Shown here: piece by piece, positions 5,390 through 42,189 of the stretch
Layout: each line of letters starts with the position of its first letter
How positions within the stretch are numbered: the first letter of the stretch is position 1
Sequence record: JX128258
Length of the DNA stretch: 64,000 nt
Direction: 5' to 3' (one strand)
Origin: Escherichia phage ECML-117
Translations under genes and position numbers: made by a program
The notes under the pieces: model-generated
Databases searched by the model: none
Seen by the model: the letters and a program-made list of their open reading frames with translations, nothing else
Told to the model about the DNA's origin: nothing

Positions 5390-5863
5390 ATGAGTCAAGA
5401 TTATGTAGCAATGCCTGAAGACTTTGAAGACCCGCGATTTGCAGAGCATAATCAGGCATTATTCGATGAGTTCATTGACCTTGTTATTCAGGGCCATGAC
5501 ATGCGCGCAGCTTTTGCACTAGTATTTGGCATGGAGGTTGCGACCGATAACTACACTGGCCAGCGAATCCTCTGCACGCAACGCAATCCGTACTACAAGA
5601 TGCGCTACAAAAAGCGTATGGAAGAGATGCCATTGAAGGAATTGTGGAGTGTAAAGAGTTCCATCCACAATTTAGTGAAGCTTGTGCGTGATCCAGAAGT
5701 CGCAGCATCAGCCAAGCTTAATGCCATTCGTGAACTGAATATCATCTACGGCATCACGATGATTGATGAGAATGGCAATAGTAAAATGGGCCGTTCCATG
5801 GACGATTTCTACAAGGATTTTGGAGAGGCAGCCAAAGAGGGTGAGCAATTCTCCCGCCACTAG
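5390..5863 (+). CDS. hypothetical protein (157 aa)
   Basis: In frame with track ORF 5195..5863; ATG at 5390 after two TATAAT-like boxes; the start codon overlaps a copy of the ATTTGCACTAT motif. Confidence 0.5.
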   Translation: MSQDYVAMPEDFEDPRFAEHNQALFDEFIDLVIQGHDMRAAFALVFGMEVATDNYTGQRILCTQRNPYYKMRYKKRMEEMPLKELWSVKSSIHNLVKLVRDPEVAASAKLNAIRELNIIYGITMIDENGNSKMGRSMDDFYKDFGEAAKEGEQFSRH

Positions 5864-5882
5864 CCAATTTGCACTATAAAAC

Positions 5883-5916
5883 GGCCCTAGAACACATTTT
5901 CTCCACTTCTAGGGCC
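5883..5916. other. perfect 10-bp stem-loop (GGCCCTAGAA-N14-TTCTAGGGCC)
   Basis: Read directly; lies 20 nt after the stop at 5863; no clear T-tract on the plus strand. Confidence 0.5.
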
Positions 5917-6261
5917 ATCGGTAATACGACGGGGAAGGTTACAACCATAAACGCTTTAGAAAGTGTATTATTATAAGTCATCTTTTAGTCACTTTACGTA
6001 ACAATTTACGACCTTCCGCCGTCCAGTCGAACGACTCCACCAGCAGATTTGCACTATAACCTAAGACGATGCGCCCTTTCTCGTTATCGACCCGCCAACA
6101 AGTCTCGAATAGCATTCGATTTGCACTATTAACTATCGCCGCAACGCGCGTTGGGTAAGCGCAATTTGCACTATGGTCGTAAAGGGATAAGGTGCGACCA
6201 CTTCCGATGGACAACGTAGCGATGAGAATAAGCGTATTCATAAGCCACCAATTTGCACTAT

Positions 6262-6284
6262 GAAAAGCGACCCCGAAGGGCCGC
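6262..6284 (-). terminator. putative rho-independent terminator for minus-strand gene 6292..6918
   Basis: Minus-strand GCGGCCC-ttcg-GGGTCGC hairpin (one mismatch) followed by TTTT. Confidence 0.4.
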
Positions 6285-6291
6285 CATTCGA

Positions 6292-6918
6292 TTAGATAAT
6301 CTGGAATGTGTAGGACTTGTTGCCGAACTCAAAGGTCAAGCGTCCAGCTTCTTTAAGCTTCATGCGGAAGCGAATGTGCTTGCTATCCGGTAATCCCAGC
6401 GCGGCGAACGCTACGCGGACCGATTTGAACTCGCCTACACCTTCGACCATGACGCCGTTACGGGTGAGACGCTTTTGCGCCACTTCCTTGTTATCCCAAC
6501 TTTTTGCAATACCTTCGCTATTCGAACGGCGATGGGAAGGACTGGCAATTTTATCCGCGCCAACCGGAGCATCATTCAGGCCGCTTTTAACGAAGGCTTC
6601 ATATTCTTCGTCGGTCATCGCGTCGAGTTCTTCCTGGGTCGGCTCCGCTTTTTTAACGACCGCACGCGCTTTGTGCGTTTTTACATCGCTGGACACTTCC
6701 TCGCGCGGCTTCGCGTCTGGGATGGGCGATTCGTTGGACGGCTCATCGAGCGCGTTTAAGGACTCGATTAACGCGATGACGCGAGTCTCAGCGGTGCGAC
6801 GGTCCGCAAACTTCTTAATCGGTTTTGAGCCGGAGTTAGCGTTATAGAATGCAACGAGGTCGGCGGTCTTAGTTGCGATAACGTCGCCGCTAGTAGAGAA
6901 ACGATTCAAGCTAACCAT
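6292..6918 (-). CDS. hypothetical protein (208 aa) with acidic central linker
   Basis: Track ORF; AGGAG upstream on minus strand; antisense plus-strand ORFs are Ser-rich and low-complexity; CpG-rich composition. Confidence 0.6.
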   Translation of the reverse strand: MVSLNRFSTSGDVIATKTADLVAFYNANSGSKPIKKFADRRTAETRVIALIESLNALDEPSNESPIPDAKPREEVSSDVKTHKARAVVKKAEPTQEELDAMTDEEYEAFVKSGLNDAPVGADKIASPSHRRSNSEGIAKSWDNKEVAQKRLTRNGVMVEGVGEFKSVRVAFAALGLPDSKHIRFRMKLKEAGRLTFEFGNKSYTFQII

Positions 6919-6987
6919 AATAAACTCCTAGTTTGGGAGCGGCGTTAACGACCTATTCGCTAACTCATCCCGTCCCGATATGAGTAC

Positions 6988-7015
6988 ATTATAATATAGT
7001 GTAGAAAAAAGTAAA
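6988..7015 (-). promoter_or_regulatory. sigma70-like promoter (TTTACT-N16-TATAAT) for 6292..6918
   Basis: Minus-strand read GTGCTTTACT...TATAATGTACTCATATCGGGACGGGATGAGTTAGCGAATAGGTCG is homologous to the plus-strand module upstream of 7554. Confidence 0.45.
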
Positions 7016-7059
7016 GCACTTTTTCGATAAAAATGCGATAAATTATTTTATCTTTTTTC

Positions 7060-7087
7060 TTTACTTCTTCGTACACTCGCGTATACT
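7060..7087 (+). promoter_or_regulatory. sigma70-like promoter (TTTACT-N16-TATACT) for 7144..7446
   Basis: CTTTACTTCTTCGTACACT shared with promoter at 7458; followed by TGTTTATATCGAGACGGG leader. Confidence 0.45.
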
Positions 7088-7143
7088 TGTTTATATCGAG
7101 ACGGGCGATGGCCCTTCCTTCTACTAGCATCGGGAGCTTTATT

Positions 7144-7446
7144 ATGACTACTTTAATCTCTTCCATCCTTACTTACGACGAAGACCGTTTAACCGTTCGC
7201 TCTCTTATCGCCGCCGTTAACGCGGAACTAGAATCTAGCGCCATTAAGGTCCGCGCGGTCGCCTTCATCGGCCTTTCCTTCGACGATATGAAGTACGCCG
7301 AACGTAGCGCCATCCGCTTCGCGAAGACCGACGACGAAGCCGTTACCCTTATCGAGACGGTTACGCCGCGCGGCGAAGCGTTAATTATCGTCGAGTATAT
7401 CGACGTAGAAGGCGATAAATCTTATAAACATTTTATCGCAGAATGA
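7144..7446 (+). CDS. small acidic protein (100 aa)
   Basis: In frame with track ORF 7087..7446; ATG at 7144 after GGGAG; codon usage rich in CpG, almost no CTG/CAG. Confidence 0.55.
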   Translation: MTTLISSILTYDEDRLTVRSLIAAVNAELESSAIKVRAVAFIGLSFDDMKYAERSAIRFAKTDDEAVTLIETVTPRGEALIIVEYIDVEGDKSYKHFIAE

Positions 7447-7457
7447 CGAAAAAGTGC

Positions 7458-7486
7458 TTTACTTCTTCGTACACTAAGACTATAAT
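7458..7486 (+). promoter_or_regulatory. sigma70-like promoter (TTTACT-N17-TATAAT) for 7554..7844
   Basis: Hexamers read directly; duplicated module of 7060-7087. Confidence 0.5.
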
Positions 7487-7508
7487 GTTTTATATCGAGA
7501 GGGGATGA

Positions 7509-7529
7509 GGTAGCGAATAGGTCGCTACC
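7509..7529 (+). other. leader stem-loop (GGTAGCGA-atagg-TCGCTACC) in 5' UTR
   Basis: 8-bp perfect stem between promoter and RBS; a related imperfect copy lies in the minus-strand leader of 6292..6918. Confidence 0.45.
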
Positions 7530-7553
7530 CTCCCGACTAACTAGGAGAATATT

Positions 7554-7844
7554 ATGATTACTTTAGCCGCTATCCGTTCCGCTCGCGTCGAAACTTCCGA
7601 AAACTCTAACGTATTTGGCGAAACCTTAGAGAGCGTTTATCTCTCTAACGTAGACGCAACTATCGAGTCTATTTATGAGCCGATCAACTTTCTCGACCTT
7701 TACAAGTATCGCGACGAGGACATCGTATCCTACCGCGTAACGATTAACGGCTTCGTTTATACGATCACCGAAATCGGCGGCGAATATATAGCTGTACCGC
7801 AACTCGGCGGCGAAGTAACTTACTTTAAAATCGTAAGCCTTTAA
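7554..7844 (+). CDS. small acidic protein (96 aa)
   Basis: Track ORF; AGGAGAA upstream; same unusual codon usage as 7144..7446; similar size and N-terminus (MITLAAI vs MTTLISSI). Confidence 0.6.
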   Translation: MITLAAIRSARVETSENSNVFGETLESVYLSNVDATIESIYEPINFLDLYKYRDEDIVSYRVTINGFVYTITEIGGEYIAVPQLGGEVTYFKIVSL

Positions 7845-7855
7845 GGAGAAGAAAG

Positions 7856-8065
7856 ATGACTAATATGAATAACTCTCTTAACGCGCGCGCCCATCGCACC
7901 GCCGTAATCGATATGTTTCGCGAGCTTAAGGAATTATGCGATAATATGAACGCGATGTTATCCATCGGCGGCTGGGGATACGAAGAAGAAGTTAAATACG
8001 CGGTTATGCGTCGCCGTCGCGATAACGTCCTTGGACAAATTAAACGCGCCGGATTATTCCTTTAA
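7856..8065 (+). CDS. hypothetical protein (69 aa)
   Basis: Track ORF; AAGGAGAAGAAAG upstream; same codon usage; followed by terminator. Confidence 0.55.
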   Translation: MTNMNNSLNARAHRTAVIDMFRELKELCDNMNAMLSIGGWGYEEEVKYAVMRRRRDNVLGQIKRAGLFL

Positions 8066-8091
8066 TTATAATCACCCACCGTTACTAATAG

Positions 8092-8116
8092 GCCGCGCTT
8101 AGTCGCGGCTTTTCTT
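8092..8116 (+). terminator. rho-independent terminator (GCCGCG-cttagt-CGCGGC + TTTTCTT)
   Basis: Read directly after the stop at 8065. Confidence 0.6.
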
Positions 8117-8586
8117 CGTCCCTATCTCAATGCGCTTCTCCGCGAAAATTCCTTTATCCTTCCCTTCGTCGTCGCATAATCTTCGTCGAGATGCTCCTTA
8201 GTTCGCATAACGGGTATTACGTTAAATGGAGAACATCGCGTAAGTCCTTGTTTTATATAGACACCTATATCGGACCGTTAAGGCGGGTCGCGTAAGTCGT
8301 TGTTTTATAAAGGCGCAAAACTTTCCCTTCGTTCCGAACTAAAACGAGAAATATGCGGACCCTTCGCCCGAAAATAGTACGCATGCGAAATTACCGACAT
8401 CTAGAATAATCCCCGCCGATATTATCCTACACGCAATCATTAGCCTTCGAATCATTATGCTTCATATTATTATGCATCGAATCATTCGCTTTCGAATTGT
8501 AACGCTGGAAACTGTAACGGCGATTGATTATTGCGTTCGTGTGGTTTTTATGGCATGGGTCTTTTGGTGCGTTTTGGTACTTGATG

Positions 8587-8709
8587 AAATTTGCAGTACA
8601 CTAATCAAAATACGACACATTTGGTCCACTAACTTTTCAAAGAAAAAGTCCTAGACAGTACCGTACTATTTTGTGCCCACAGTAAATTTGCAGTACACTC
8701 CTGCGCGGC
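8587..8709 (+). repeat. two copies of 16-bp motif AAATTTGCAGTACACT
   Basis: Exact copies at 8587-8602 and 8694-8709; shares the ATTTGCA core with the 11-bp array at 5367-6261. Confidence 0.7.
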
Positions 8710-8767
8710 AGGCAAAGAAAGGGCCGCCACAGCGACCCACGATTCACGGTTAAATCAGCAACACCCA

Positions 8768-9178
8768 CTATTCGCTCTTATGGGCATCACCAAAGCCATC
8801 CGCAATCTGGCTGATCAATGATTCAATGGACACAGTTTTACCAATTGATCGAGCGGTAATAGCAAGCATATTATCAATCAAACCATGATTGGATGCATAT
8901 GGTCCAGGTTTTGAATCATCTTCAGGACAGCCAAAAAGCTGGTCGCGCAAACTTTCGAGAGAACGCTCAATATTTTCCAGCTTCTCTTCTAAATCAGATT
9001 GGCGACGTAAAACCCATGTTAAGTCTCGGTTGCCGACTTCCAACCCATCAGAATCGCAAGCTGGAACGTCAATTTTGATGCTGCCACCAAAGGCCATTCC
9101 GCTGCCTTTAGTATATGTGTTGTGAATAGAATCATTCTTATTTGACATATCATTACCTTTCATGAGGGTGATTAACAA
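8768..9178 (-). CDS. hypothetical protein (136 aa)
   Basis: Track ORF on minus strand; start may be an internal Met. Confidence 0.5.
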   Translation of the reverse strand: MLITLMKGNDMSNKNDSIHNTYTKGSGMAFGGSIKIDVPACDSDGLEVGNRDLTWVLRRQSDLEEKLENIERSLESLRDQLFGCPEDDSKPGPYASNHGLIDNMLAITARSIGKTVSIESLISQIADGFGDAHKSE

Positions 9179-9208
9179 TAACTATAATAAAGCCGCATAG
9201 CGCGGCAT

Positions 9209-9469
9209 TCAAATCGGTTTGTTAATTGTAACGATTGGATTCATCAATCGATACCAACTGTGCTGGGTCGCCGGATACGGTCGAGCCAATGATACCCATC
9301 TGCTGAAAGAACTCTGAATAAACTTCCTTCCAGTATCTACGCGCTGCTTTCTGAGCCTGCCTTTGCGCTTGAAGCTTTTACCTTGAAAGATGAAACGGTC
9401 GCTTGCCGCTCGATACTCCACCACACCTTCCAGCCATTGTAAGAACGCTACTGATTCATTCTGATTCAT
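9209..9469 (-). CDS. hypothetical protein (86 aa)
   Basis: Track ORF on minus strand. Confidence 0.4.
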   Translation of the reverse strand: MNQNESVAFLQWLEGVVEYRAASDRFIFQGKSFKRKGRLRKQRVDTGRKFIQSSFSRWVSLARPYPATQHSWYRLMNPIVTINKPI

Positions 9470-9476
9470 GTTAACC

Positions 9477-9932
9477 TCAATATTTTAATAAGAAAGCACC
9501 CAACCAACTTTCCTCAATCTCGCGGCCAGTAGCCACACGGTCGGTCTTTGCTATGGGTCTGGATTCGCCGCAAGGTAATCCGTCTTGCAGTTGTGTACTA
9601 TTGCCAATTCTCACCATGACCTTTCCATCAGGGTCGATATAAGCGCGACAACCCATGATTTCGAGTCGTTGTAGACACTGGCGAATCGTTTTCAGCCTTT
9701 CACCGGACCGGATAGAGCGCGGTCGCGACCGCTGACCGTTCTTATTCACTGTCCGCTTAACGACCGGAATCTCATTGGTGCGTTTCGCTTTCGGTCGGTA
9801 ATAGGCTTCTTCGCCAGGAGTCGCACCTGGCGTCAATTCACGCTTGAGCGCCTTTTCAATATCGATGATCATAATTATGCCGCAGCAGCGTGGATGATTA
9901 CGTAAACTATGCCAAATAGCGCGGCAATACAT
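9477..9932 (-). CDS. hypothetical basic protein (up to 151 aa)
   Basis: Track ORF; the Cys/His-rich N-terminal extension looks unnatural, so the start may be the internal Met at 9872. Confidence 0.45.
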   Translation of the reverse strand: MYCRAIWHSLRNHPRCCGIIMIIDIEKALKRELTPGATPGEEAYYRPKAKRTNEIPVVKRTVNKNGQRSRPRSIRSGERLKTIRQCLQRLEIMGCRAYIDPDGKVMVRIGNSTQLQDGLPCGESRPIAKTDRVATGREIEESWLGAFLLKY

Positions 9933-9965
9933 ACCGTGCCCCAGAATGCAAAGCGTCGTGACTCT

Positions 9966-10187
9966 TTATCCATTGTCCACCGCTCCAATATCCTTCAAGA
10001 ACTTGTGCAAGTCACCTTTCTTATTAAGCTTTTGCATAGTTTTGATATCATCAAGTGATATGCCTTGATCGCTTTGTTGTTTGTCAATGCAGACAATGCC
10101 GCCTTTCTTGGCCTTGATTGTCATGCCTTTGGCTTCAATACTTTTTACGAAATCGGACAATAATTTAATTTCCATAATACACCTCAC
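9966..10187 (-). CDS. hypothetical protein (73 aa)
   Basis: Track ORF on minus strand. Confidence 0.4.
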   Translation of the reverse strand: MRCIMEIKLLSDFVKSIEAKGMTIKAKKGGIVCIDKQQSDQGISLDDIKTMQKLNKKGDLHKFLKDIGAVDNG

Positions 10188-10256
10188 TTGTTAACGTATA
10201 ATGAGTATAACTTAATAGCGCATAAAGTAAAGGCGCTTTTCAGCGCCTTGAGTGAA

Positions 10257-12614
10257 TTATTTTGCTGCTTTCAGCGCGGCTATTTCTGCCTTTAGTTCAT
10301 CTATCTGATCCATCAATGCAAGAATTGCCTCGTGATGGAGTGCTGCTGCAACGCCAGAAGTGTTTACTGACTTTACGTCATCCAGAATTGACCCATCACG
10401 CAGGGTGACTGGTGATGATTTTGTTTCTGATACGGCTTCAGGGAAGTCTTTCTCTACGTCCTGCGCGATGAATCCGTATCCGATTGAGCCATTTGTCTCC
10501 AGGACCCATGTGACCCCTTTGATGTTTCTCATCTTGGAGAGCGGATTACTGATGCGCTCAATGTTGCTTTTAATTCTTTCGTCAGATGTGCTTCGCCATT
10601 CCTGGCATCTTGCTATGCCGTCAGCACCAAATAGATAAGAGGCACTGCTGCCAATGCCATTCAAAATGTTAAGTTGCGCACGGTCCAATGCTGTTGTGCC
10701 ACTTCTGACTCCGCCAAGCATCCAATTCCCGTCATACCAGTCGCCGCCAACGGAGTTTATATAGCCTCCTTCTGGCACATTCGCGTAGTTGATCATCCTG
10801 ATGGCATTTCTTTCTGAAGCTGCCACCCCGACTGAATTCAACGGTTGTGCAACGACATCCTTGGGCCTTACGTATGCGTCAATGTGTAATGCGCCGTCAG
10901 GCCTTAGTGTGCCAATTTGAGTCTCTGCGCTTGGGAAGTACAAAGTCCCAGCTTGGTTGAATGACCATTCTTGCACCCCATTAGATATCACCGCACCTTG
11001 TTCAGATGTTAATCCATCAATTTTTCCGTATGCCTGCAAGAATGCTTGATACGCAACGTTCGTGCCAATCTTATATTCAGATTTTACACTACCGCCTCTG
11101 ACAAGCGTTCCGGCTGCAGGTTTTACTGCGTCGCCGTTAATCACACTCCAAGAAGTATTCGCGGCAACAAATCCACCCGATGCACGAATCACCCAAACGC
11201 CAACAAAGTTGCGACCCATGATTTCGTCAGTTGCCGCTCCATAAATCGGGCTTGATCTGGATGCATCAATATTTATTGTATTGAGACGCCCCTCCACTGC
11301 CCCGCTTCCAACAGGTATGGTGTCGCCGCCGCCTTGGGGGTACAAATCGTTGTTTGTGTAAAAAGCACCTCGGACGGCTGTGCCAAAGATTTGCGCATAA
11401 GTGCCTGCCGATACACCAGCAGCTGAGCCTGTGATGTTTGGTGCAGCAGATTCAAATATTTGACCGTTCGCAGTGGAGTTGCCGCCATCACCGCGCCCGT
11501 AAAGCGCCCGTACAGAGCCTGTCTGGACACCGTTAAGGTCTGGGACACGGAATGTCGTTGTGCCGTTACCTGAAGAATATTTTGCACGTTTGAACTTATC
11601 CGCAAGCCAGTCGGCATCTGCGATGGGTGAAAGCATCTGCGCATACGCCCAAAGTTCAGGCCAGTCAGCACGGTTTAGCAATTGCCCGTCTGCAACGACT
11701 TCGTATGGCTGAATATATGATCTACTATTGCGAAGATGGAAATCGCCAACACCATAGTTCATGACACCGTTCATACTTGGGCCAACGGTGCCTGTGTTTA
11801 CTAAGTTTTCAACCCAACGCTTAGTCGCGGCATCATAATCATTTACAGGGTCGCCAGCGAGCGGCGTTGATCCTTGTGGACGGATGTTTAGCCACGCCTG
11901 AGCATTATCTGCAGAGCCTGTGCCGCCCATTGAAGTTGGAACGATGCTCTGATCAGCAACAGGGCCGAATCCGAAAGCAGTCTTCATTCCTTGAATGGTG
12001 GTCTGCCCAGTTCCGCCATTTGCAATTGGAATCGTGCTTTGCGTACTATACATTTGCACCCAATCCGACCAGGATGATGAGCCAGCATTGTATAGCCTTT
12101 GGTATATGGCGTTGATCCAATAAGGCGTATATCTTTGGACGCAGCTTTCTCCTGCGACGCCAGTATTGTAAACTTCAAGAATACCAGCTTGTGAGACTGG
12201 ATAGTTCAGCGCCGATGATGCACCAGCATTTGCTGATTGATGATATTGACCAAACCATGAACCAGTCAAGGCATTGAGATTTATTCCGTTAGGAATCTCT
12301 CCAAAGTTTCGGACAGTACCCGTCAAAGTTGCGGCAGTGGTTCGAATAGAAAGCATGTCGCCAGCCGCCCATGCACGCGCTGCAGTCCCTTCTTGTGCAC
12401 GCTGCACGGTCAGGACGTTTCCAACAACGGCTGTTACTGTGACGATTTCGAATTGGAGGCCTGTTGCAGCGTCGACGATTGTCGCCACTACACGCTCGTT
12501 TGCGCCCAAGGTCGGAAAGCCCGACCCTGAGCGAATTGTGATTGTGGTGTCTGAAGTCGTCGTTGGTTGAGCCAGCGCGACCTCAAAGTTGTTTTTGAAT
12601 ATTAGCCTTGGCAT
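10257..12614 (-). CDS. tail spike/fibre protein with C-terminal intramolecular chaperone (S74-type autoproteolytic) domain
   Basis: 785 aa; Gly/Ser/Thr/Asn-rich fibrous body; C-terminal segment containing SDERIKSNIE and a terminal coiled coil, as in endosialidase-type chaperone domains. Confidence 0.7.
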   Translation of the reverse strand: MPRLIFKNNFEVALAQPTTTSDTTITIRSGSGFPTLGANERVVATIVDAATGLQFEIVTVTAVVGNVLTVQRAQEGTAARAWAAGDMLSIRTTAATLTGTVRNFGEIPNGINLNALTGSWFGQYHQSANAGASSALNYPVSQAGILEVYNTGVAGESCVQRYTPYWINAIYQRLYNAGSSSWSDWVQMYSTQSTIPIANGGTGQTTIQGMKTAFGFGPVADQSIVPTSMGGTGSADNAQAWLNIRPQGSTPLAGDPVNDYDAATKRWVENLVNTGTVGPSMNGVMNYGVGDFHLRNSRSYIQPYEVVADGQLLNRADWPELWAYAQMLSPIADADWLADKFKRAKYSSGNGTTTFRVPDLNGVQTGSVRALYGRGDGGNSTANGQIFESAAPNITGSAAGVSAGTYAQIFGTAVRGAFYTNNDLYPQGGGDTIPVGSGAVEGRLNTINIDASRSSPIYGAATDEIMGRNFVGVWVIRASGGFVAANTSWSVINGDAVKPAAGTLVRGGSVKSEYKIGTNVAYQAFLQAYGKIDGLTSEQGAVISNGVQEWSFNQAGTLYFPSAETQIGTLRPDGALHIDAYVRPKDVVAQPLNSVGVAASERNAIRMINYANVPEGGYINSVGGDWYDGNWMLGGVRSGTTALDRAQLNILNGIGSSASYLFGADGIARCQEWRSTSDERIKSNIERISNPLSKMRNIKGVTWVLETNGSIGYGFIAQDVEKDFPEAVSETKSSPVTLRDGSILDDVKSVNTSGVAAALHHEAILALMDQIDELKAEIAALKAAK

Positions 12615-12652
12615 TTTACGGTCCTCGTTTTGTCGACAACCGTATTATAACC

Positions 12653-12994
12653 TTAATTTCTTTTGAGAGGAATATGACGGTGGCTGCCATTATCTGGTTT
12701 AATAATGAGCATAAAAACGATTAGAAAGATGATGGCTGATATACTTAATTCAATCAGCGCGGCCTGAGATATGGATTGATCTTCGTGATACTGCTTTTGC
12801 ATTTCTGCTTTCTTCTGAGCGCAAACTTCAGGCGATATATAATCACCTTTTGAGTTGCCATAATAAATCTCGCCATTCTCAGAAATAAGTCTGCCGCAAA
12901 TATCCGTATCGGCCTTTGCGCTTGACATCATAATAACAGTGCCGATGATAGCAGCAATTGTCCAGATTAGCAGTTGTGATAAAGTATTGTTCAT
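12653..12994 (-). CDS. membrane/secreted protein (113 aa)
   Basis: In frame with track ORF 12653..13084; start at MNNTLSQLLIWTIAAIIGTVIMMSSAKA (signal-like) with a C-terminal hydrophobic segment. Confidence 0.45.
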   Translation of the reverse strand: MNNTLSQLLIWTIAAIIGTVIMMSSAKADTDICGRLISENGEIYYGNSKGDYISPEVCAQKKAEMQKQYHEDQSISQAALIELSISAIIFLIVFMLIIKPDNGSHRHIPLKRN

Positions 12995-13190
12995 GATAAC
13001 CTCTTTAAATTCCCTTCCCATATCGGGAAGGGCGAATGTTATTTTACGCGAAAGAATAGGCGCGTGCCACACAGCGAGTCCCAACGGCCCTCACCATCCC
13101 ATATCGACCCAACACCAGCGGTGATTGGGCCAGCAGAATTGGCGGCATTGGCCCAGGCGAGACGTTTCAACTTCCAACTGCACCAACGAT

Positions 13191-13454
13191 TCACAGTTCA
13201 CCTCCAGATTGCAAAACAAGTCCCGCATAGAGGATTGCTAAAGCTAAAGGCGCACCACTTCCAGCTTCTCTATTCTCTTTGATTTGAAGAGTGTCCTTAA
13301 GGAATTGCAGCTGAACGTTGAATTCATTTTCAATTCCAAGCACTCCAGCTAATTCTTTTACAGAATCTGCATATGCCTTGTCTAGCACTTCTTTTGGTAC
13401 TGTTAAAGTCAATTCATTTGCCATTTTCTTTCCACTCCACAAATGTGCTGCCAC
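13191..13454 (-). CDS. hypothetical protein (87 aa)
   Basis: Track ORF on minus strand. Confidence 0.4.
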   Translation of the reverse strand: MAAHLWSGKKMANELTLTVPKEVLDKAYADSVKELAGVLGIENEFNVQLQFLKDTLQIKENREAGSGAPLALAILYAGLVLQSGGEL

Positions 13455-13635
13455 TTGTTTCTCTATTTAGCAGGTATCTGCCGCGCATTCCATGAAGGCT
13501 GAATTCAACCGTCGATGGATTAGATTTTGAAAGCCACATCGCTTGACCGTCGAATGGTCCGCCAACGCATGTGTATTTGGCTTTTGGCTCACTCCTTTTG
13601 GGCCGTTTTGCCCGCTCTTTGATTGATAGTCTCAT
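13414..13635 (-). CDS. hypothetical protein (73 aa)
   Basis: Track ORF on minus strand. Confidence 0.35.
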   Translation of the reverse strand: MRLSIKERAKRPKRSEPKAKYTCVGGPFDGQAMWLSKSNPSTVEFSLHGMRGRYLLNRETSGSTFVEWKENGK

Positions 13636-13850
13636 CAGTCTTCACCTTGAGATTCAAGACAAGTAAGAACAAGCCATGTCATCGGAAGAATCAAAACCAG
13701 AGAAATAAGGGACCAGATGGACCAGCACAAGATGACAGACTTGAATGTGTGAACGTCGCCAAACGCAGCAGTGAAACAAAATCCCATCACGAAAGCAAGC
13801 GCGGTGGAGTGGTTATCAATGGCTTTGATGGCACGGTCGATGAGTTTCAT
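13635..13850 (-). CDS. small membrane protein (71 aa)
   Basis: Track ORF; two hydrophobic segments. Confidence 0.4.
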   Translation of the reverse strand: MKLIDRAIKAIDNHSTALAFVMGFCFTAAFGDVHTFKSVILCWSIWSLISLVLILPMTWLVLTCLESQGED

Positions 13851-13939
13851 ATTACCTCCGGTTTTGAGTTAATATGATTATAACGCAGAGCTTCAGAAAG
13901 GCAAACTTTTTGTGAATTTATGCCGTCCATGGCAAATGA

Positions 13940-14170
13940 TTAGTGAGAAGACACGACTAATGTGCCGCTTCCTTTCGCGAAAATCTCAACACCTGGCGGG
14001 ATTGTGACCGTGCCAACCACTGCGATTCCGATCAACTTGTCATCGGCTTTTTCTTCGAAACAGATCTCTGCGCCACCGCCGCGAACTTGAATAAGTGCGC
14101 CTGATACGTTTTCAGCAACAGAAAGAACGGAAGTGTAAGATGGAGTGAGTTGAATATTTACTAGGGCCAT
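13940..14170 (-). CDS. hypothetical protein (76 aa)
   Basis: Track ORF on minus strand. Confidence 0.4.
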   Translation of the reverse strand: MALVNIQLTPSYTSVLSVAENVSGALIQVRGGGAEICFEEKADDKLIGIAVVGTVTIPPGVEIFAKGSGTLVVSSH

Positions 14171-14288
14171 GATTTACTCCTGATAAAAAAATGGCCAGAA
14201 AGAATCTGGCCGAAAAGATCACCCTTTATCCACTACTAAGCTGGAATCATAATTTTACTTGATATAGCTGTCGCAAGCAAACTATAAT

Positions 14289-15749
14289 ATGAATAAAATA
14301 TTAACACATAATTGGAAAGTCATGTACCAGTTGAATCCTGCTTTAAGAGAAGTCTGGAAGACGAAAGCGCGATACAAAGTAATATACGGTGGTCGTGCAT
14401 CTTCCAAATCGCATGATGCCGCTGGTTTTGCTATTTATTTGGCGGCAAACTTTAAATTAAAATTCCTTTGCGTTCGACAATTCCAGAACAAGATTTCTGA
14501 ATCAGTATATACGCTATTAAAAGACAAAATAGAAATTTCTGATTTCAAAGATGAGTTCAACTTATTAAAGAACTCCATTGAACACAAAAGAACAAAATCT
14601 GAATTCTTATTTTACGGTATCGCACGCAATGTTGACGAAATCAAATCAACAGAAGGCGTTGATGTTCTTTGGCTTGAAGAAGCGCACGCACTTACTGAAG
14701 AGCAGTGGGACATCATTGAGCCGACAATTCGTAAGGAAGGGTCAGAAATATGGATCATATTTAACCCTGATGAAGAGGCTGATTTCGTCTACCAGAACTT
14801 TGTTATGCGACCGCCTAAAAATGCCATCGTTAAGAAGATTAACTGGCAGGACAATCCATTCTTGTCGCAAACAATGCTGGACGTTATCGCTGGCATGTAT
14901 GAGCGCGACCCGAAAAAGGCAGAACACGTTTATGGCGGAGTACCGAAGACAGGCGGCGACAAGTCGGTCATCAACCGTGCATTCGTCAAGGCCGCGCTAA
15001 ACCTCCACAAACACCCTACGTTGGGATGGAGCTTGTCAGGGTCTAACCGTATAGGCTTTGACGTGGCAGACGACGGCGACGACTTAAACGCCACAGCATT
15101 TGTCACGGGCAACGTATTGCGCGGCATCAAGACATGGGAAGGTCTGGAAGATGAATTGCTTAAGTCCGCAAGCGGAGTTTGGAAAGATGCATTAACATTC
15201 GGCGCATCAATTACCTATGACGCCATCGGTGTTGGTGCATTTGCTGGTTCAAAATTTGATGAGCTTAATGAGTATGCAATCCATGAAAATCCAACATTCC
15301 CAAGAATCGAATTTAATGCGTTCAACGCGCAAGGTGCTGTTGATGATCCTGATGACGTCTTCCTTGAGTTACCACACGTTGAAATACTCAATAAAGACCA
15401 TTTCGCAAACATAAAAGCGCAAAAATGGACTGAGATTGCCGAACGATTCAGGAAGACATATGAGTATGCAACAGGGCAGGCCGTATACCCGACTGATGAG
15501 CTGATTTCCATCGACACAGACGGCATTCCAGAACTTGGGATTCCTGCTTGGTCTGCGGAAGAAATTGAGACATTTCTTTTTGAGATGTCAGCGCCGCGCA
15601 AAGACACGTCTGTGCTTGGTAAGTTTAAAGTTGAATCGAAAAAGGATATGGCAAAGCGTGGAGTCAAATCGCCTAACAAAGCGGACGCAGCAATCATGGC
15701 GTTGATGAAACCAATTGTTGCAGCATCCGGCTTCTTCTCTAACCTTTAA
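14289..15749 (+). CDS. terL: terminase large subunit
   Basis: 486 aa; Walker A-like GGRASSKS, LWLEEAH Walker B-like segment, C-terminal nuclease-like region. TTGATA-N18-TATAAT abuts the annotated ATG, so the true start may be the internal Met at 14322. Confidence 0.8.
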   Translation: MNKILTHNWKVMYQLNPALREVWKTKARYKVIYGGRASSKSHDAAGFAIYLAANFKLKFLCVRQFQNKISESVYTLLKDKIEISDFKDEFNLLKNSIEHKRTKSEFLFYGIARNVDEIKSTEGVDVLWLEEAHALTEEQWDIIEPTIRKEGSEIWIIFNPDEEADFVYQNFVMRPPKNAIVKKINWQDNPFLSQTMLDVIAGMYERDPKKAEHVYGGVPKTGGDKSVINRAFVKAALNLHKHPTLGWSLSGSNRIGFDVADDGDDLNATAFVTGNVLRGIKTWEGLEDELLKSASGVWKDALTFGASITYDAIGVGAFAGSKFDELNEYAIHENPTFPRIEFNAFNAQGAVDDPDDVFLELPHVEILNKDHFANIKAQKWTEIAERFRKTYEYATGQAVYPTDELISIDTDGIPELGIPAWSAEEIETFLFEMSAPRKDTSVLGKFKVESKKDMAKRGVKSPNKADAAIMALMKPIVAASGFFSNL

Positions 15750-40404: not shown

Positions 40405-42189
40405 ATGCCAACACTTATTAACAGACCTTTCGCGCAAAGCGGTGATGTATCCGTGGTGCCGGATGCAAGCCCAAGCGGTTATGTGAACTTCCAGCGCGGC
40501 TACACTCCTGACTATGCGCTTGCGCTGGAGGCCGGAAACGTCGCCGCGAAAGCTGTTGAGCGCGAATCGATGAACTGGTTGCTGAATTTGATTACAGACA
40601 ACCTTATGTTTATTCAAGATCATGGCGCTCAACAATATTTCTCTTCTGACTTGAAGCCGGATGGATACCCGAAAAACGCCATTGTTGTCAGCAACTCTGG
40701 AACGCCTTCAGCACCTGAGTGGCGCATCTTTCAAAGCGTGGTCGACGGCAACACAAGCGCCGTACCAGCTAACGGAGAAACGGAATCTTGGCAGGAATTA
40801 ACACTGCCCAGCGAAGCGCGAAAATACATTCCTATGCCTGCTGGCGGCGATGCGCAAAACCCGTACTTCGTTCGCGGATTGATTTCAAGCTTTGTTGACT
40901 TCGATAATATTACGACTTCCACAACTATCGTCATTCAATCCGATGCCGTCGCCGCTCTTTGCTCTAACATCCCGAATGCGGTTGGCGCAACGAAGGTTGC
41001 AGGTCGACTGCAGGTCTGCGCTTGGCAGGTCAATGCGCAGACCTTTGCTTTGCAGCAATATACATCAATGAATGGCTATTTGTTTACTCGCTCTTATACT
41101 TCTGGTGCTTGGAGTGCTTGGATTCAAAATGCCACTGTTCAAGACGTGCAAATCGGAACTCCAAACCTTGCATCTGGTAAAGGCGCGCAAGATATAATCC
41201 TCACCGTTCCAGCAGGGTATTCATGGCCGCCTTCTGCGGGTAGTCGTTTGACCATCGTCAATGACGTGACTACTACCGGACCTGTCACCGTGACCATTGG
41301 TGTAAACAAAGTTGCCGTTCTTGGATTCGACGGCGGCGAGTTACCAGCTGGCGCTATCGTAGGCTTGTTGCCATTCACCATCATTTATGACGGCGCTGTT
41401 TGGCGTCTCCTTCAGGCATTTGGCGCGGCGCAAATCGGCGTTGATGCTACTGAGCCGCAACAGTTTGTTACAAAGCGCCAACTCGATGCTTTGGCTGCGA
41501 AGTTGATCACTATGGGTGACGTATTCGAAGTCGGTGAGACTCGATTCCTTACCAACGGAACCAACCCAAATACTAAACTGGGCGCTTACGGTCAGGTATG
41601 GACACGACTGCCTGATAACATGGTCATTAGAACATCTGGAACGTCGCGGAACGGTCTTGCCACTGGCGGCGCGGACTCTGTCACCCTTACCGCTGCCATG
41701 CTCCCTCTTCACAACCACAGCGTAAACATAACTACGCGTCAGAGCGGCCCATGGTCCAATACTACTGGAGATGCTGGAAATCACAACCACACAGGCGATA
41801 CCAGTCAGAACGGCGCTCACTCTCATGGTATGGATGCAGCAGGAAATCATTACCATGACAGCGGTTGGGGAGAGGCGTATGCGGACCAAGCGCGTTACGG
41901 AGTTTATGACGGTACTCACAACAACCTTGGGAGTGCAAGGTCTGATTATGATAACTACAAATACAACACTTCAACTAATGGCAACCACGTCCATAATATT
42001 CAATCTTCTGGATCACACACTCATGGTTTGAATATAAATTACGCTGGCAATCACAGCCATGGCTATACCCTTCCCGCTCACACTCACGATGTGGTCGGTA
42101 ATACTGGCGATGCAGGGCAGTCGGTGCCAACGGCTGTTGCGACTTTGCCGCGATACGTTGTTTTGAATGGCTGGTACAGAAGCGCATAA
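40405..42189 (+). CDS. tail fibre with His-x-His repeat tip
   Basis: In frame with track ORF 40348..42189; ATG at 40405 after GAGGAACGG; C-terminal GNHNHTGD, GAHSHG, GNHYHD, GNHVHN, GSHTHG, GNHSHG, AHTHD repeats as in metal-binding fibre tips. Confidence 0.65.
   Translation: MPTLINRPFAQSGDVSVVPDASPSGYVNFQRGYTPDYALALEAGNVAAKAVERESMNWLLNLITDNLMFIQDHGAQQYFSSDLKPDGYPKNAIVVSNSGTPSAPEWRIFQSVVDGNTSAVPANGETESWQELTLPSEARKYIPMPAGGDAQNPYFVRGLISSFVDFDNITTSTTIVIQSDAVAALCSNIPNAVGATKVAGRLQVCAWQVNAQTFALQQYTSMNGYLFTRSYTSGAWSAWIQNATVQDVQIGTPNLASGKGAQDIILTVPAGYSWPPSAGSRLTIVNDVTTTGPVTVTIGVNKVAVLGFDGGELPAGAIVGLLPFTIIYDGAVWRLLQAFGAAQIGVDATEPQQFVTKRQLDALAAKLITMGDVFEVGETRFLTNGTNPNTKLGAYGQVWTRLPDNMVIRTSGTSRNGLATGGADSVTLTAAMLPLHNHSVNITTRQSGPWSNTTGDAGNHNHTGDTSQNGAHSHGMDAAGNHYHDSGWGEAYADQARYGVYDGTHNNLGSARSDYDNYKYNTSTNGNHVHNIQSSGSHTHGLNINYAGNHSHGYTLPAHTHDVVGNTGDAGQSVPTAVATLPRYVVLNGWYRSA

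Follow-up and report, generated by a model that had tools for sequence, protein, structure and literature searches.

The product of the minus-strand gene at 10257..12614 of Escherichia phage ECML-117 is very probably the variable tail fibre that serves a Wifcevirus myophage as its primary means of host recognition and processes itself through a Peptidase S74 intramolecular chaperone (IMC). Coordinates refer to the window, the whole stretch of 64,000 nucleotides that was analysed (record JX128258). An exact sequence look-up identified the product as ECML-117 gp24 (YP_009101025.1, 100% identical), labelled "tail fiber protein" in GenBank, and in a PHROG search the 'tail fiber protein' family phrog_6921 spanned the open reading frame (ORF) end to end (E = 1e-271). 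The protein, its annotation and its fibre type are already known, and the finding is an ordinary one, though the biology is real. Orthologues were annotated with PF13884 in 2019-2020, and Humolli et al. (PLoS Biol 2025; PMC11990801), the BASEL study, describe the two fibre sets of Wifcevirus: the HxH fibre is conserved, whereas the "T-shaped" one is variable and carries an IMC and two receptor-binding domains (RBD1 and RBD2). The general principle has also been published: the anchor is conserved, receptor modules are exchanged independently of one another, and the self-removing chaperone moves together with the tip that it folds. Here, we add a module map, breakpoints and a correlation between O157 and RBD2, which sharpen the known picture into a testable domain-swap design, together with the invariance of the catalytic dyad in 103 orthologues, the peptide coverage of the fibre in virions, its chimeric make-up and the RBD2 shared by six O157 phages.

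Locus and domain map of the fibre

An earlier note on this DNA had proposed a 785-aa minus-strand ORF at this position, and its coordinates proved exact. The gene has the synteny of a Wifcevirus T-shaped fibre, a minus-strand locus with the genome end on one side and a terminase gene on the other; the synteny is shared with WFC gp013, vB_Eco4M-7_27 and Bas100_0105, and the annotation is the same in WFC, vB_Eco4M-7 and Bas100. The following features were assigned:

12622..12626, minus strand: Shine-Dalgarno sequence GAGGA, 7 nt 5' of the ATG, read from the sequence
10257..12614, minus strand: tail fibre gene, 785-aa ORF with ATG start, 83.0-kDa precursor
12315..12614, minus strand: N-terminal attachment (anchor) domain, aa 1-100, near-invariant in the genus
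12015..12314, minus strand: pyocin-type knob, aa 101-200, first variable module, 21 clusters at 75% identity
11490..12014, minus strand: GGTG shaft repeats and conserved RBD1 scaffold, aa 201-375, 83-98% conserved
11265..11489, minus strand: RBD1 hypervariable insert, aa 376-450, second variable module, 26 clusters
11115..11264, minus strand: conserved junction FVGVWVIRASGGFVAANTSWSVINGD, aa 451-500, recombination crossover zone
10584..11114, minus strand: distal receptor-binding domain RBD2, aa 501-677, third variable module, ending at the cleavage serine
10569..10586, minus strand: Ser-Lys catalytic dyad and scissile Ser677/Asp678 bond, S-D-E-R-I-K, aa 677-682
10260..10583, minus strand: intramolecular chaperone (Peptidase_S74), aa 678-785, 11.7 kDa
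10230..10249, minus strand: terminator-like hairpin AAGGCGCT-GAAA-AGCGCCTT, immediately 3' of the fibre stop codon
40405..42189, plus strand: the other fibre, HxH-tipped and conserved, in the baseplate module; 63.2 kDa, 594 aa counted from the ATG

The WFC record annotates the same hairpin element as a putative terminator. A sigma-70 promoter scan around the gene was uninformative, because it returned 18 sites against 16.4 expected. As the earlier note had stated, the gene lies on the opposite strand to the baseplate and fibre genes, including the HxH-tip fibre, and 25-28 kb from them (25.0 kb to the 912-aa baseplate gene at 37656 and 27.7 kb to the second fibre at 40348/40405-42189, +). Only ~1.7 kb separates the fibre gene from the gene for the large terminase (14289, +), which is transcribed divergently, and the fibre gene therefore stands at the head of the late region and not in an unrelated part of the genome; this nearness is a nuance that the earlier note did not contain.

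The gene product is a fibre in which an invariant anchor is followed by a knob of the pyocin type, a putatively collar-type RBD1 with its hypervariable insert, a distal RBD2 and an IMC. Across 102 orthologues, the anchor was 96-100% identical to the query per 25-aa block and formed a single cluster (95-100% identity in Wifcevirus phage records). Its homologues include the N-terminal part of the 8jov tail fibre (18 chains, E = 1.7e-7) as well as the N-termini of fibres or spikes from Ralstonia phage GP4 and from Burkholderia and Klebsiella phages. Residues 101-192 matched knobs from the fibres of R1 and R2 pyocins (6ct8, 6cl6 and 6cl5; E = 1.4e-7 to 6e-4), and the NCBI name of relatives is 'pyocin knob domain-containing S74 family peptidase'; the nearest named phage for the knob was WFC (94-95%). 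Sequence homology to R-type pyocin and P2-like fibre knobs covers aa 101-190 (E = 1e-7), but pyocins have their knobs in the distal part of the shaft, ahead of a lectin-like foot, whereas the ECML-117 fibre carries one knob right after its anchor. This knob (aa 101-200) is not singled out as a third variable module in the consulted parts of Humolli et al. (PMC11990801).

The RBD1 scaffold (aa 201-375) contains GGTG repeats at aa 200 and 230 and the collar-type motif TTFRVPDLNG. The Pfam Collar match on RBD1 was sub-threshold (E = 0.003; 17.8 bits against a cut-off of 24), as were all matches in relatives (13/63). DT57C LtfA 539-831 (PDB 8hqz) matched aa 233-523 of the fibre with E = 1e-115; however, 8hqz provides no structural template for RBD1, because the matched part of LtfA is not modelled in it. 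The T5-like branched lateral fibres LtfA/LtfB of DT57C are ~85% identical over the conserved scaffold and are likewise O-antigen-recognising and IMC-bearing; LtfA differs in that a coiled-coil 'lasso' ties it to the collar protein LtfC in a siphovirus, and its N-terminus alone has been solved. The junction at aa 451-500 is common to T5-like and Gordonclarkvirinae fibres, and the C-terminus of S16 gp37 was also among the PDB sequence matches of the fibre.

Published work gives HHpred and AF-Multimer support for a gp12-like RBD1 in relatives. With the models and profiles used here, we could not reproduce the published assignments of a 'gp12-like RBD1' and a 'T5-like RBD2'. Alignment of the family (Neff ~2) by hhalign gave no significant match to T4 gp12, and none to T5 pb1 970-1396 except for the IMC motif; a profile search of PDB sequences matched neither gp12 nor pb1. 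The AF2 single-chain model (aa 233-785; mean pLDDT 56.5, below 50 in RBD1) was usable for the IMC only, and Foldseek with this monomer model returned T5 pb1 at E = 0.025 and TM 0.24.

The chaperone domain and its release

The earlier note had assigned the protein a C-terminal auto-cleaving chaperone with the motif SDERIKSNIE, and this part of its reading held. The C-terminus of the fibre has the IMC fold, the motif is located at aa 677-686, and the profile search that the note suggested found the domain present: Pfam Peptidase_S74 (PF13884) matched aa 677-728 (E = 1.4e-12), scoring 48.1 bits where the gathering cut-off is 22, and was above the cut-off in 63/63 relatives too. Ser677, Asp678 and Lys682 were invariant in 103/103 orthologous sequences, while neighbouring residues vary; they give the S-D-x-x-x-K pattern at the start of the domain, in which the catalytic Ser and Lys lie five residues apart. 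The dyad aligned with the T5 pb1 motif TSDARLK. Relative to the S74 IMCs of K1F endosialidase, T5 pb1, S16 gp37 and GA-1 gp12, the passenger here is a fibre tip from another sequence family, and neither a sialidase beta-propeller nor a beta-helix. The ICA of MyRF is a eukaryotic homologue of the Peptidase S74 intramolecular chaperone. In EP335 gp13, Ser621/Asp622 align with Ser677/Asp678 and the motif RCQEWRSTSDERIKSNIERIS is identical; cleavage at Ser621/Asp622 has been mapped by mass spectrometry (MS) and autoproteolysis shown experimentally (Witte et al. 2021; PMC8217332).

The fibre is present in ECML-117 particles. Virion MS, another check that had been suggested, is available as published data on CsCl-purified ECML-117, in which the fibre was detected in processed form. 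Peptides of the exact protein cover aa 8-669, the last being aa 646-669; 18/20 detectable tryptic peptides of aa 1-677 were found and 0/7 of aa 678-785 (hypergeometric P = 4e-5 for the absence of IMC peptides). In a purified sample of the sister phage vB_Eco4M-7, IMC peptides were abundant, at 25% of the fibre's PSMs; therefore, either IMC release from particles is not universal or that sample held free precursor. With vB_Eco4M-7 as a caveat, the evidence for autoproteolytic release of the IMC from the mature ECML-117 fibre is indirect but specific.

In the mechanism that we propose, three chains would be synthesized, each as an 83-kDa precursor, and the S74 chaperone (aa 678-785) would nucleate trimer folding of the distal domain. 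After trimer folding, a cut at Ser677/Asp678 catalysed by Ser677-Lys682 would free the chaperone and leave a mature chain of 71.3 kDa. The trimer, presumably 'T'-shaped, would be docked on the baseplate by the invariant aa 1-100, for which the ~400-aa extension of the 912-aa triplex protein (37656-40394) is a candidate docking site.

Mosaic structure and module exchange

The fibre is a mosaic. Backbone DNA was 97-98% identical to relatives versus ~86% in the fibre region, and the best named protein match of the fibre was 79%. Among 103 orthologues, 61 distinct module combinations were counted, that of ECML-117 being unique in the set. Alleles of RBD2 and the IMC co-assorted (AMI 0.87) far more closely than those of RBD1 and RBD2 (AMI 0.26). 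The RBD1 insert was 20-59% identical to orthologues, yet 98.9% to WFC (next best, 70%), with a dN/dS versus WFC of 0.02; for the fibre, dN/dS versus WFC was 0.03 at a dS of 0.73. RBD2 formed 13 clusters with bimodal identity, and its aa 524-676 were 89-90% identical to EP335 gp13 and PH444, 74% to vB_Eco4M-7 and 20% to WFC; the tblastn figure for aa 500-676 was 87.6-88.1%. The change from WFC-like to EP335/4M-7-like sequence was a sharp breakpoint at aa ~485-500, alike in protein and DNA. By sequence comparison, the ECML-117 fibre is a natural chimera, WFC-like to aa ~485 and then carrying an EP335-like RBD2 and IMC. The suggestion of an exchangeable host-range cassette was borne out by these identities and module counts, in that the fibre seems to behave as such a cassette and as the primary variable determinant of host range, which would evolve by whole-allele module swaps at conserved junctions, with no gradual change.

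EP335 gp13 is the lateral fibre of a Gordonclarkvirinae podovirus (PMC8217332). It is 89% identical to the ECML-117 fibre over aa 524-676, with an identical cleavage motif, and 83% over aa 677-785 (88% over aa 677-775). In contrast, its RBD1 insert is only 30-31% identical, and it belongs to a different phage morphotype, lacks the Wifcevirus anchor and knob and is joined to the particle via the proximal fibre gp12. DNA homology to EP335 ends within the fibre gene. We considered whether the small ORF that follows the fibre gene had been acquired with the EP335-like segment, and rejected this: it showed no similarity to the 72-aa holin that EP335 has in that place, and it belongs to a pair of alternatives specific to Wifcevirus. 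Gp114 of ManiWeber/Bas99 (PMC11990801) shares the locus, length class, conserved anchor, variable RBD1 and RBD2, IMC and accompanying HxH fibre. In ECML-117 the alleles are combined differently, the knob and RBD1 being of the WFC type and RBD2 and the IMC of the EP335 type, and ECML-117 infects O157/O25 and not O16.

Host recognition and the roles of the two fibres

Both fibres were seen by MS in purified ECML-117 particles, the HxH fibre as PI34_gp61. The latter carries eight HxH motifs at its C-terminal tip, matched PDB 9b45 'gp47 Tail fiber' (E = 1e-31), was 34% identical to Pbunavirus fibres in its N-terminal half and is an orthologue of the Pbunavirus baseplate fibre. We propose that the knob, the putatively collar/gp12-type RBD1 with its hypervariable insert, and RBD2, as three modules each independently exchangeable, would contact variable surface glycans, most likely O-antigen, and that the HxH fibre, which is conserved and encoded in the tail module, would then perform an invariant later step. 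The earlier note had called the separate-locus protein a second receptor-binding protein; it is a receptor-binding fibre, but it would not be second in importance, being the variable primary host-range determinant.

The note had also suggested dual receptor specificity from the two fibres, in the manner of SP6/K1-5, where the separate-locus fibre and the HxH fibre would use different primary receptors, either of them sufficient. Two distinct fibres are indeed encoded and present in particles, and ECML-117 infects two serogroups, O157 and O25. However, the HxH fibre was 90-99% identical across all 27 Wifcevirus records, whatever the host (O157, O16, Shigella), and this conservation, with its Pbunavirus orthology, means that it cannot explain host differences; vB_Eco4M-7 carries the same conserved HxH fibre yet has no O25 activity. 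According to the BASEL study (PMC11990801), Bas98-101 lose infectivity entirely without the O16 O-antigen, which argues for sequential and not alternative use of the two fibres. We therefore find the SP6/K1-5-type arrangement improbable and dual specificity from two fibres unsupported. Dual specificity, if any, is more likely to reside within the single fibre, with its two or three independently assorting variable modules.

ECML-117 forms plaques on O157 and O25 strains only, and EP335 gp13 binds O157 cells strongly and O26 cells weakly (PMC8217332). One RBD2 family (56-88% identity) is common to six O157-associated phages of three morphotypes, ECML-117, vB_Eco4M-7, FEC19, Ro157lw, EP335 and FFH1. 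From these comparisons, we tentatively consider it possible that the ECML-117 fibre is bispecific, the shared RBD2 family directing it to the O157 O-antigen and the WFC-type RBD1 insert or knob conferring the extra O25 activity. The WFC isolation strain is O-non-typeable and therefore uninformative for the O25 prediction. O157 specificity might instead be set by RBD1 or the knob, with RBD2 otherwise employed, for a second glycan or as a structural tip. The BASEL authors found that the phylogeny of RBD1, not RBD2, tracked host-recognition breadth in Gordonclarkvirinae, though their data did not show which RBD is decisive, and Bas89 combines an RBD2 72-77% identical to those of O157 phages with dependence on O16. 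Against this, the RBD1 inserts of the six O157 phages are mutually unrelated (23-55%), and EP335 and FFH1 have either no knob or an unrelated one; FEC19 (O157:H7) and Bas100 (O16) have RBD1 inserts that are 94% identical but unrelated RBD2s (13%); and ECML-117 and vB_Eco4M-7, whose RBD1 inserts are 35% identical, nevertheless agreed in every plus/minus result on a set of 40 O157 strains. We regard O157 specificity from RBD1 or the knob as rather unlikely. If RBD2 does direct the fibre to O157 and RBD1 or the knob to O25, ECML-117 would be a natural domain-swap experiment on the BASEL question of which of the two RBDs in a T-shaped fibre recognises the O-antigen. A commercial food-safety cocktail against O157:H7 contains ECML-117, and assigning modules to O-antigens would permit rational retargeting of its host range. 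An enzymatic tailspike or depolymerase of the endosialidase type, in keeping with the term 'tail spike' in the earlier note, is extremely improbable. The S74 domain was first described in endosialidases, and the SP13 orthologue is annotated 'endo-N-acetylneuraminidase' in GenBank; but Pfam, PHROG and PDB searches for a beta-helix or beta-propeller glycosidase or lyase found no sialidase, pectate-lyase, other beta-helix or catalytic domain, and all matches were fibre modules, so that the protein is a fibre and not a spike. The SP13 label stems from the Pfam name 'Chaperone of endosialidase'.

Position and modular anatomy of the variable fiber

The 785-aa open reading frame was found exactly where the earlier note had placed it. 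It and the other genes considered here are, in window coordinates:

10257..12614, minus strand: variable tail fiber gene, ATG start, 785 aa
40348/40405..42189, plus strand: HxH fiber gene of the tail module, eight HxH motifs in the C-terminal 130 residues
37656-40394, plus strand: 912-aa baseplate protein (DUF2612; PI34_gp60, 98.6 kDa)
12653-12994, minus strand: 113-aa membrane protein, 38 nt upstream of the fiber gene
13940-14170, minus strand: first gene of the minus-strand cluster, 76 aa, 7.7 kDa (PI34_gp30 by mass)
9966-10175, minus strand: 69-aa ORF downstream of the fiber terminator (MEIKLLSDF…, 7.6 kDa, phrog_5649)

A Shine-Dalgarno sequence, GAGGA, was read 7 nt 5' of the fiber ATG, and a GC-rich hairpin lies immediately 3' of the stop codon. 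An exact-sequence look-up returned 100% identity to "phage tail fiber protein [Escherichia phage ECML-117]" (YP_009101025.1 / AFO10457.1), and the predicted masses of five ORFs of the window agreed with the published proteome table of ECML-117, one of three phages in the anti-O157:H7 cocktail EcoShield. The gene does occupy a minus-strand locus separate from the tail module, 25.0 kb from the 912-aa baseplate gene and 27.7 kb from the HxH fiber, yet ~1.7 kb from the large-terminase gene (14289, divergently transcribed). The region is syntenic with that of the Wifcevirus myophages WFC, WFH, FEC19, vB_Eco4M-7, and BASEL Bas98-101.

The WFC orthologue was already labeled "tail fiber protein … Peptidase_S74" in 2019, and the vB_Eco4M-7 orthologue carries the 2020 annotation "Chaperone of endosialidase domain (PF13884) found". 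Humolli et al. 2025 (PMC11990801) describe, for Wifcevirus phages, a conserved HxH-tip fiber in the tail locus and a second, variable, "T-shaped" fiber that comprises a baseplate anchor at its N-terminus, a Gp12-like receptor-binding domain (RBD1), a T5-like RBD2, and an intramolecular chaperone (IMC); they also report total O16 O-antigen dependence of all four isolates. Since the same two-fiber arrangement is described there, the observation in the earlier note is correct but already known at the levels of exact protein, domain annotation, and genus-wide architecture. Its interpretation is partly right: the exchangeable cassette is supported, the protein is a fiber rather than a spike and the primary variable receptor-binding protein rather than a secondary one, and two fibers as two receptors is not supported. 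What is added here is a module map with its breakpoint, a re-analysis of mass spectrometry (MS) data in which the fiber on particles is without its chaperone, and a domain-swap prediction.

The PHROG family phrog_6921, "tail fiber protein", spans the whole protein (E=1e-271). In PDB sequence searches, aa 4-97 matched the N-terminal part of the "putative tail fiber protein" of 8jov (18 copies in the entry), aa 101-190 matched R1/R2 pyocin fiber knobs, aa 233-523 matched DT57C LtfA 539-831 (E=1e-115; a sequence relationship only, because 8hqz models just the LtfA N-terminus), and aa 664-782 matched the S16 gp37 C-terminus, to which a profile search added MyRF and GA-1. At 37-53%, the anchor is distantly related to the N-termini of fibers or spikes from podo- and siphoviruses (Ralstonia GP4-like, Burkholderia, Klebsiella, and Pseudomonas). 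No enzymatic domain was detected in Pfam, PHROG, and PDB searches, and the protein is therefore a fiber and not the "tail spike" first proposed. GenBank OP352608.1 (phage vB_EcoM_SP13) labels the orthologous gene "endo-N-acetylneuraminidase", a label almost certainly carried over in error from the Pfam domain name "Chaperone of endosialidase", because this fiber family has no sialidase domain.

The published RBD folds were neither reproduced nor refuted by profile comparisons and a single-chain model. The AF2 single-chain, non-trimeric model had a pLDDT of 56.5 (RBD1 <50), and the T5 pb1 match to this poor model was at E=0.025 and TM 0.24. Pfam Collar was sub-threshold in the fiber; of 63 relatives, only 13 matched it, likewise below the cut-off. 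A comparison with T4 gp12 by hhalign was negative.

Conservation and diversity of the fiber modules. Identity to the query is per 25-aa block in 102 full-length orthologues; clusters are at 75% identity among 103 sequences.
Module; residues; identity per block; clusters
Anchor; 1-100; 96-100%; 1
Knob (part for identity); 126-200; 53-65%; 21
Shaft and RBD1 scaffold; 201-375; 83-98%; 1 (scaffold)
RBD1 insert; 376-450; 20-59%; 26
Junction block; 476-500; 86%; –
RBD2 (part for identity); 526-675; 29-45%; 13
IMC; 676-775; 36-51%; 10

Removal of the intramolecular chaperone

The earlier note had read a chaperone-type domain from the string SDERIKSNIE (aa 677-686), and the Pfam search duly found Peptidase_S74 over aa 677-728 (E=1.4e-12; bit score 48.1, gathering cut-off 22). 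Ser677, Asp678, and Lys682 are invariant in 103/103 sequences, while neighboring positions are free to vary. Ser677 aligns with Ser621 of EP335 gp13 within an identical 21-residue motif, and gp13 loses 11.8 kDa through Ser621/Asp622 cleavage, as measured by LC-ESI-MS (PMC8217332). The TSD-x-x-x-K motif is also aligned in T5 pb1 (970-1396 fragment; Ser1264/Lys1269 by position arithmetic). Cleavage of the ECML-117 fiber is predicted to yield products of 71.3 kDa and 11.7 kDa.

The MS of virions that the note had suggested was in effect already available for CsCl-purified ECML-117 (Necel et al. 2020). We mapped the published supplementary peptide list for PI34_24, the exact protein, onto the fiber (18 unique peptides, 109 PSMs). 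All peptides fell within aa 8-669; of the tryptic peptides that could be detected, 18/20 were observed for the mature part and 0/7 for the IMC (hypergeometric P=4e-5). This re-analysis shows that the particle-borne ECML-117 fiber lacks its chaperone. In the CsCl-purified vB_Eco4M-7 sample, six IMC peptides contributed 500 of 2011 fiber PSMs, or 25% (supplementary Table S2, PMC7048862), and it could be that the vB_Eco4M-7 IMC stays bound to the particle after all. The fiber of this phage (L004 1501-3840; IMC region fully represented, 83% coverage) is, however, the top-scoring protein (2013 PSMs), above every capsid protein, making excess free unprocessed precursor a plausible source of these peptides.

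Module exchange and possible determinants of O157 recognition

The proposal of an exchangeable cassette gained support. Across the structural backbone (window 14000-38999), DNA identity to TH35, WFH, and others is 97-98%, whereas no DNA match to the fiber region (window 9000-14000) exceeds 86.5%, and the closest named protein stands at 79%. Among 103 sequences, 61 different knob/RBD1/RBD2 combinations were found, that of ECML-117 once. RBD1 and RBD2 assort nearly independently (adjusted mutual information, 0.26), while RBD2 and IMC are tightly linked (0.87), in line with a need for the chaperone to fit the tip that it folds. Judged from its alignments, the ECML-117 fiber is a chimera, WFC-type and then EP335-type. 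Identity to WFC is ~99% over aa 1-485 but drops to 20% over aa 524-676, a segment that instead resembles EP335 gp13 and PH444, a phage of 115 kb, at 89-90%. For the IMC (aa 677-785), identity is 83% with EP335 gp13 and 32% with WFC. The crossover lies at aa ~485-500, within the motif GVWVIRASGGFVAANTSWSVINGD, which fibers of Wifcevirus, Gordonclarkvirinae, and T5-like phages have in common. Against WFC the fiber has a dS of 0.73 and a dN/dS of 0.03 (0.02 in the "hypervariable" insert); such low dN/dS ratios within an allele class indicate that diversity stems from allele replacement, not drift. The upstream 113-aa membrane protein, near-identical in all relatives (3-6/113 differences from the WFC, vB_Eco4M-7, and Bas100 orthologues, despite adjoining the variable fiber), is the limit of the exchanged region.

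We also set the modules of phages whose hosts are stated side by side. Six O157-associated phages, namely the myoviruses ECML-117, vB_Eco4M-7, FEC19, and Ro157lw, the podovirus EP335, and the T5-like siphovirus FFH1, carry RBD2s of a single family (56-88% pairwise) together with RBD1 inserts that are unrelated to one another (23-55%). FEC19 (O157:H7) and the O16-dependent Bas100 have RBD1 inserts 94% identical and unrelated RBD2s (13%). ECML-117 and vB_Eco4M-7 gave the same plus/minus outcome on 40/40 O157 strains tested, and ECML-117 but not vB_Eco4M-7 formed plaques on 6/10 O25 strains; their fibers have the RBD2 type in common (74%), with the RBD1 insert at 35% and the knob at 78%. Across 102 orthologues, RBD2 identity to ECML-117 is bimodal (64 at <20%, 35 at ≥50%). 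These correlations, from few and partly related phages, tentatively assign O157 recognition to RBD2 and O25 recognition to RBD1 or the knob, a reading we regard as rather doubtful. A counter-example is Bas89, with an RBD2 72-77% identical yet O16-dependent, and the authors of the BASEL set saw no correlation of RBD2 phylogeny with host recognition among their own phages (PMC11990801).

The conserved HxH fiber and neighboring genes

The HxH-tip fiber noted in the tail module is real, and follows sheath, lytic tail protein, hub, and wedge genes. Its longest ORF starts at GTG (40348), with a 47-nt overlap with the preceding gene. From ATG 40405 it encodes 594 aa and 63.2 kDa, and since the MS table of ECML-117 lists the same mass, ATG 40405 is the likely start. 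Identity of the fiber is 90-99% across 27/27 Wifcevirus records. In its N-terminal half it resembles about 290 Pbunavirus fibers at 34%, and that half also matches "gp47 Tail fiber" of the solved Pbunavirus baseplate. It is therefore a vertically inherited baseplate fiber that cannot explain host differences, which leaves the idea of two fibers for two receptors unsupported; the protein called the "second" receptor-binding protein is instead the primary, variable one. This conservation supports sequential use, in which the variable fiber would engage the O-antigen first and the HxH fiber would act next, an order that we infer; use of the two fibers as alternatives is less likely. The variable fiber, suggested to be an addition in the Wifcevirus lineage, matched in any part only 31 Pseudomonas records, 24/31 of them from P. 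fluorescens SBW25 phages, and no ~66-kb Pbunavirus-sized genome was among the Pseudomonas records listed for the anchor.

The match of the 912-aa baseplate protein to Pbunavirus "triplex gp45" / "baseplate wedge 2" covers only its first ~186 residues, and it is longer by about 400 aa than the Pbunavirus proteins (500-504 aa); speculatively, the extra fiber could dock on this extension. The 113-aa protein has an N-terminal signal or transmembrane segment and a C-terminal transmembrane segment; it had no family match and is absent from the main-text MS table of vB_Eco4M-7. The 76-aa gene corresponds by position to vB_Eco4M-7_32, and because PI34_gp30 and vB_Eco4M-7_32 (high score, 1002) were both detected in purified phage, further particle-associated proteins may be encoded by the cluster of small genes near the fiber. 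In window 5500-15000, sigma-70-like promoters were at chance level (18 versus 16.4 expected), and terminator-like hairpins were ~2x those of shuffled sequence (20 versus 10.1 ± 3.6 expected).

The slot 3' of the fiber terminator is dimorphic within Wifcevirus. The 69-aa form (PI34_gp23, weakly detected by MS) occurs in 13 records at 96-100% identity, including ECML-117, WFH, FEC19, Bas99, and Ro157lw. WFC, vB_Eco4M-7, and Bas100 carry an unrelated 91-95-aa gene (MKFEDIDKAQ…) in the same slot, and its vB_Eco4M-7 product was detected by MS with 62% coverage.
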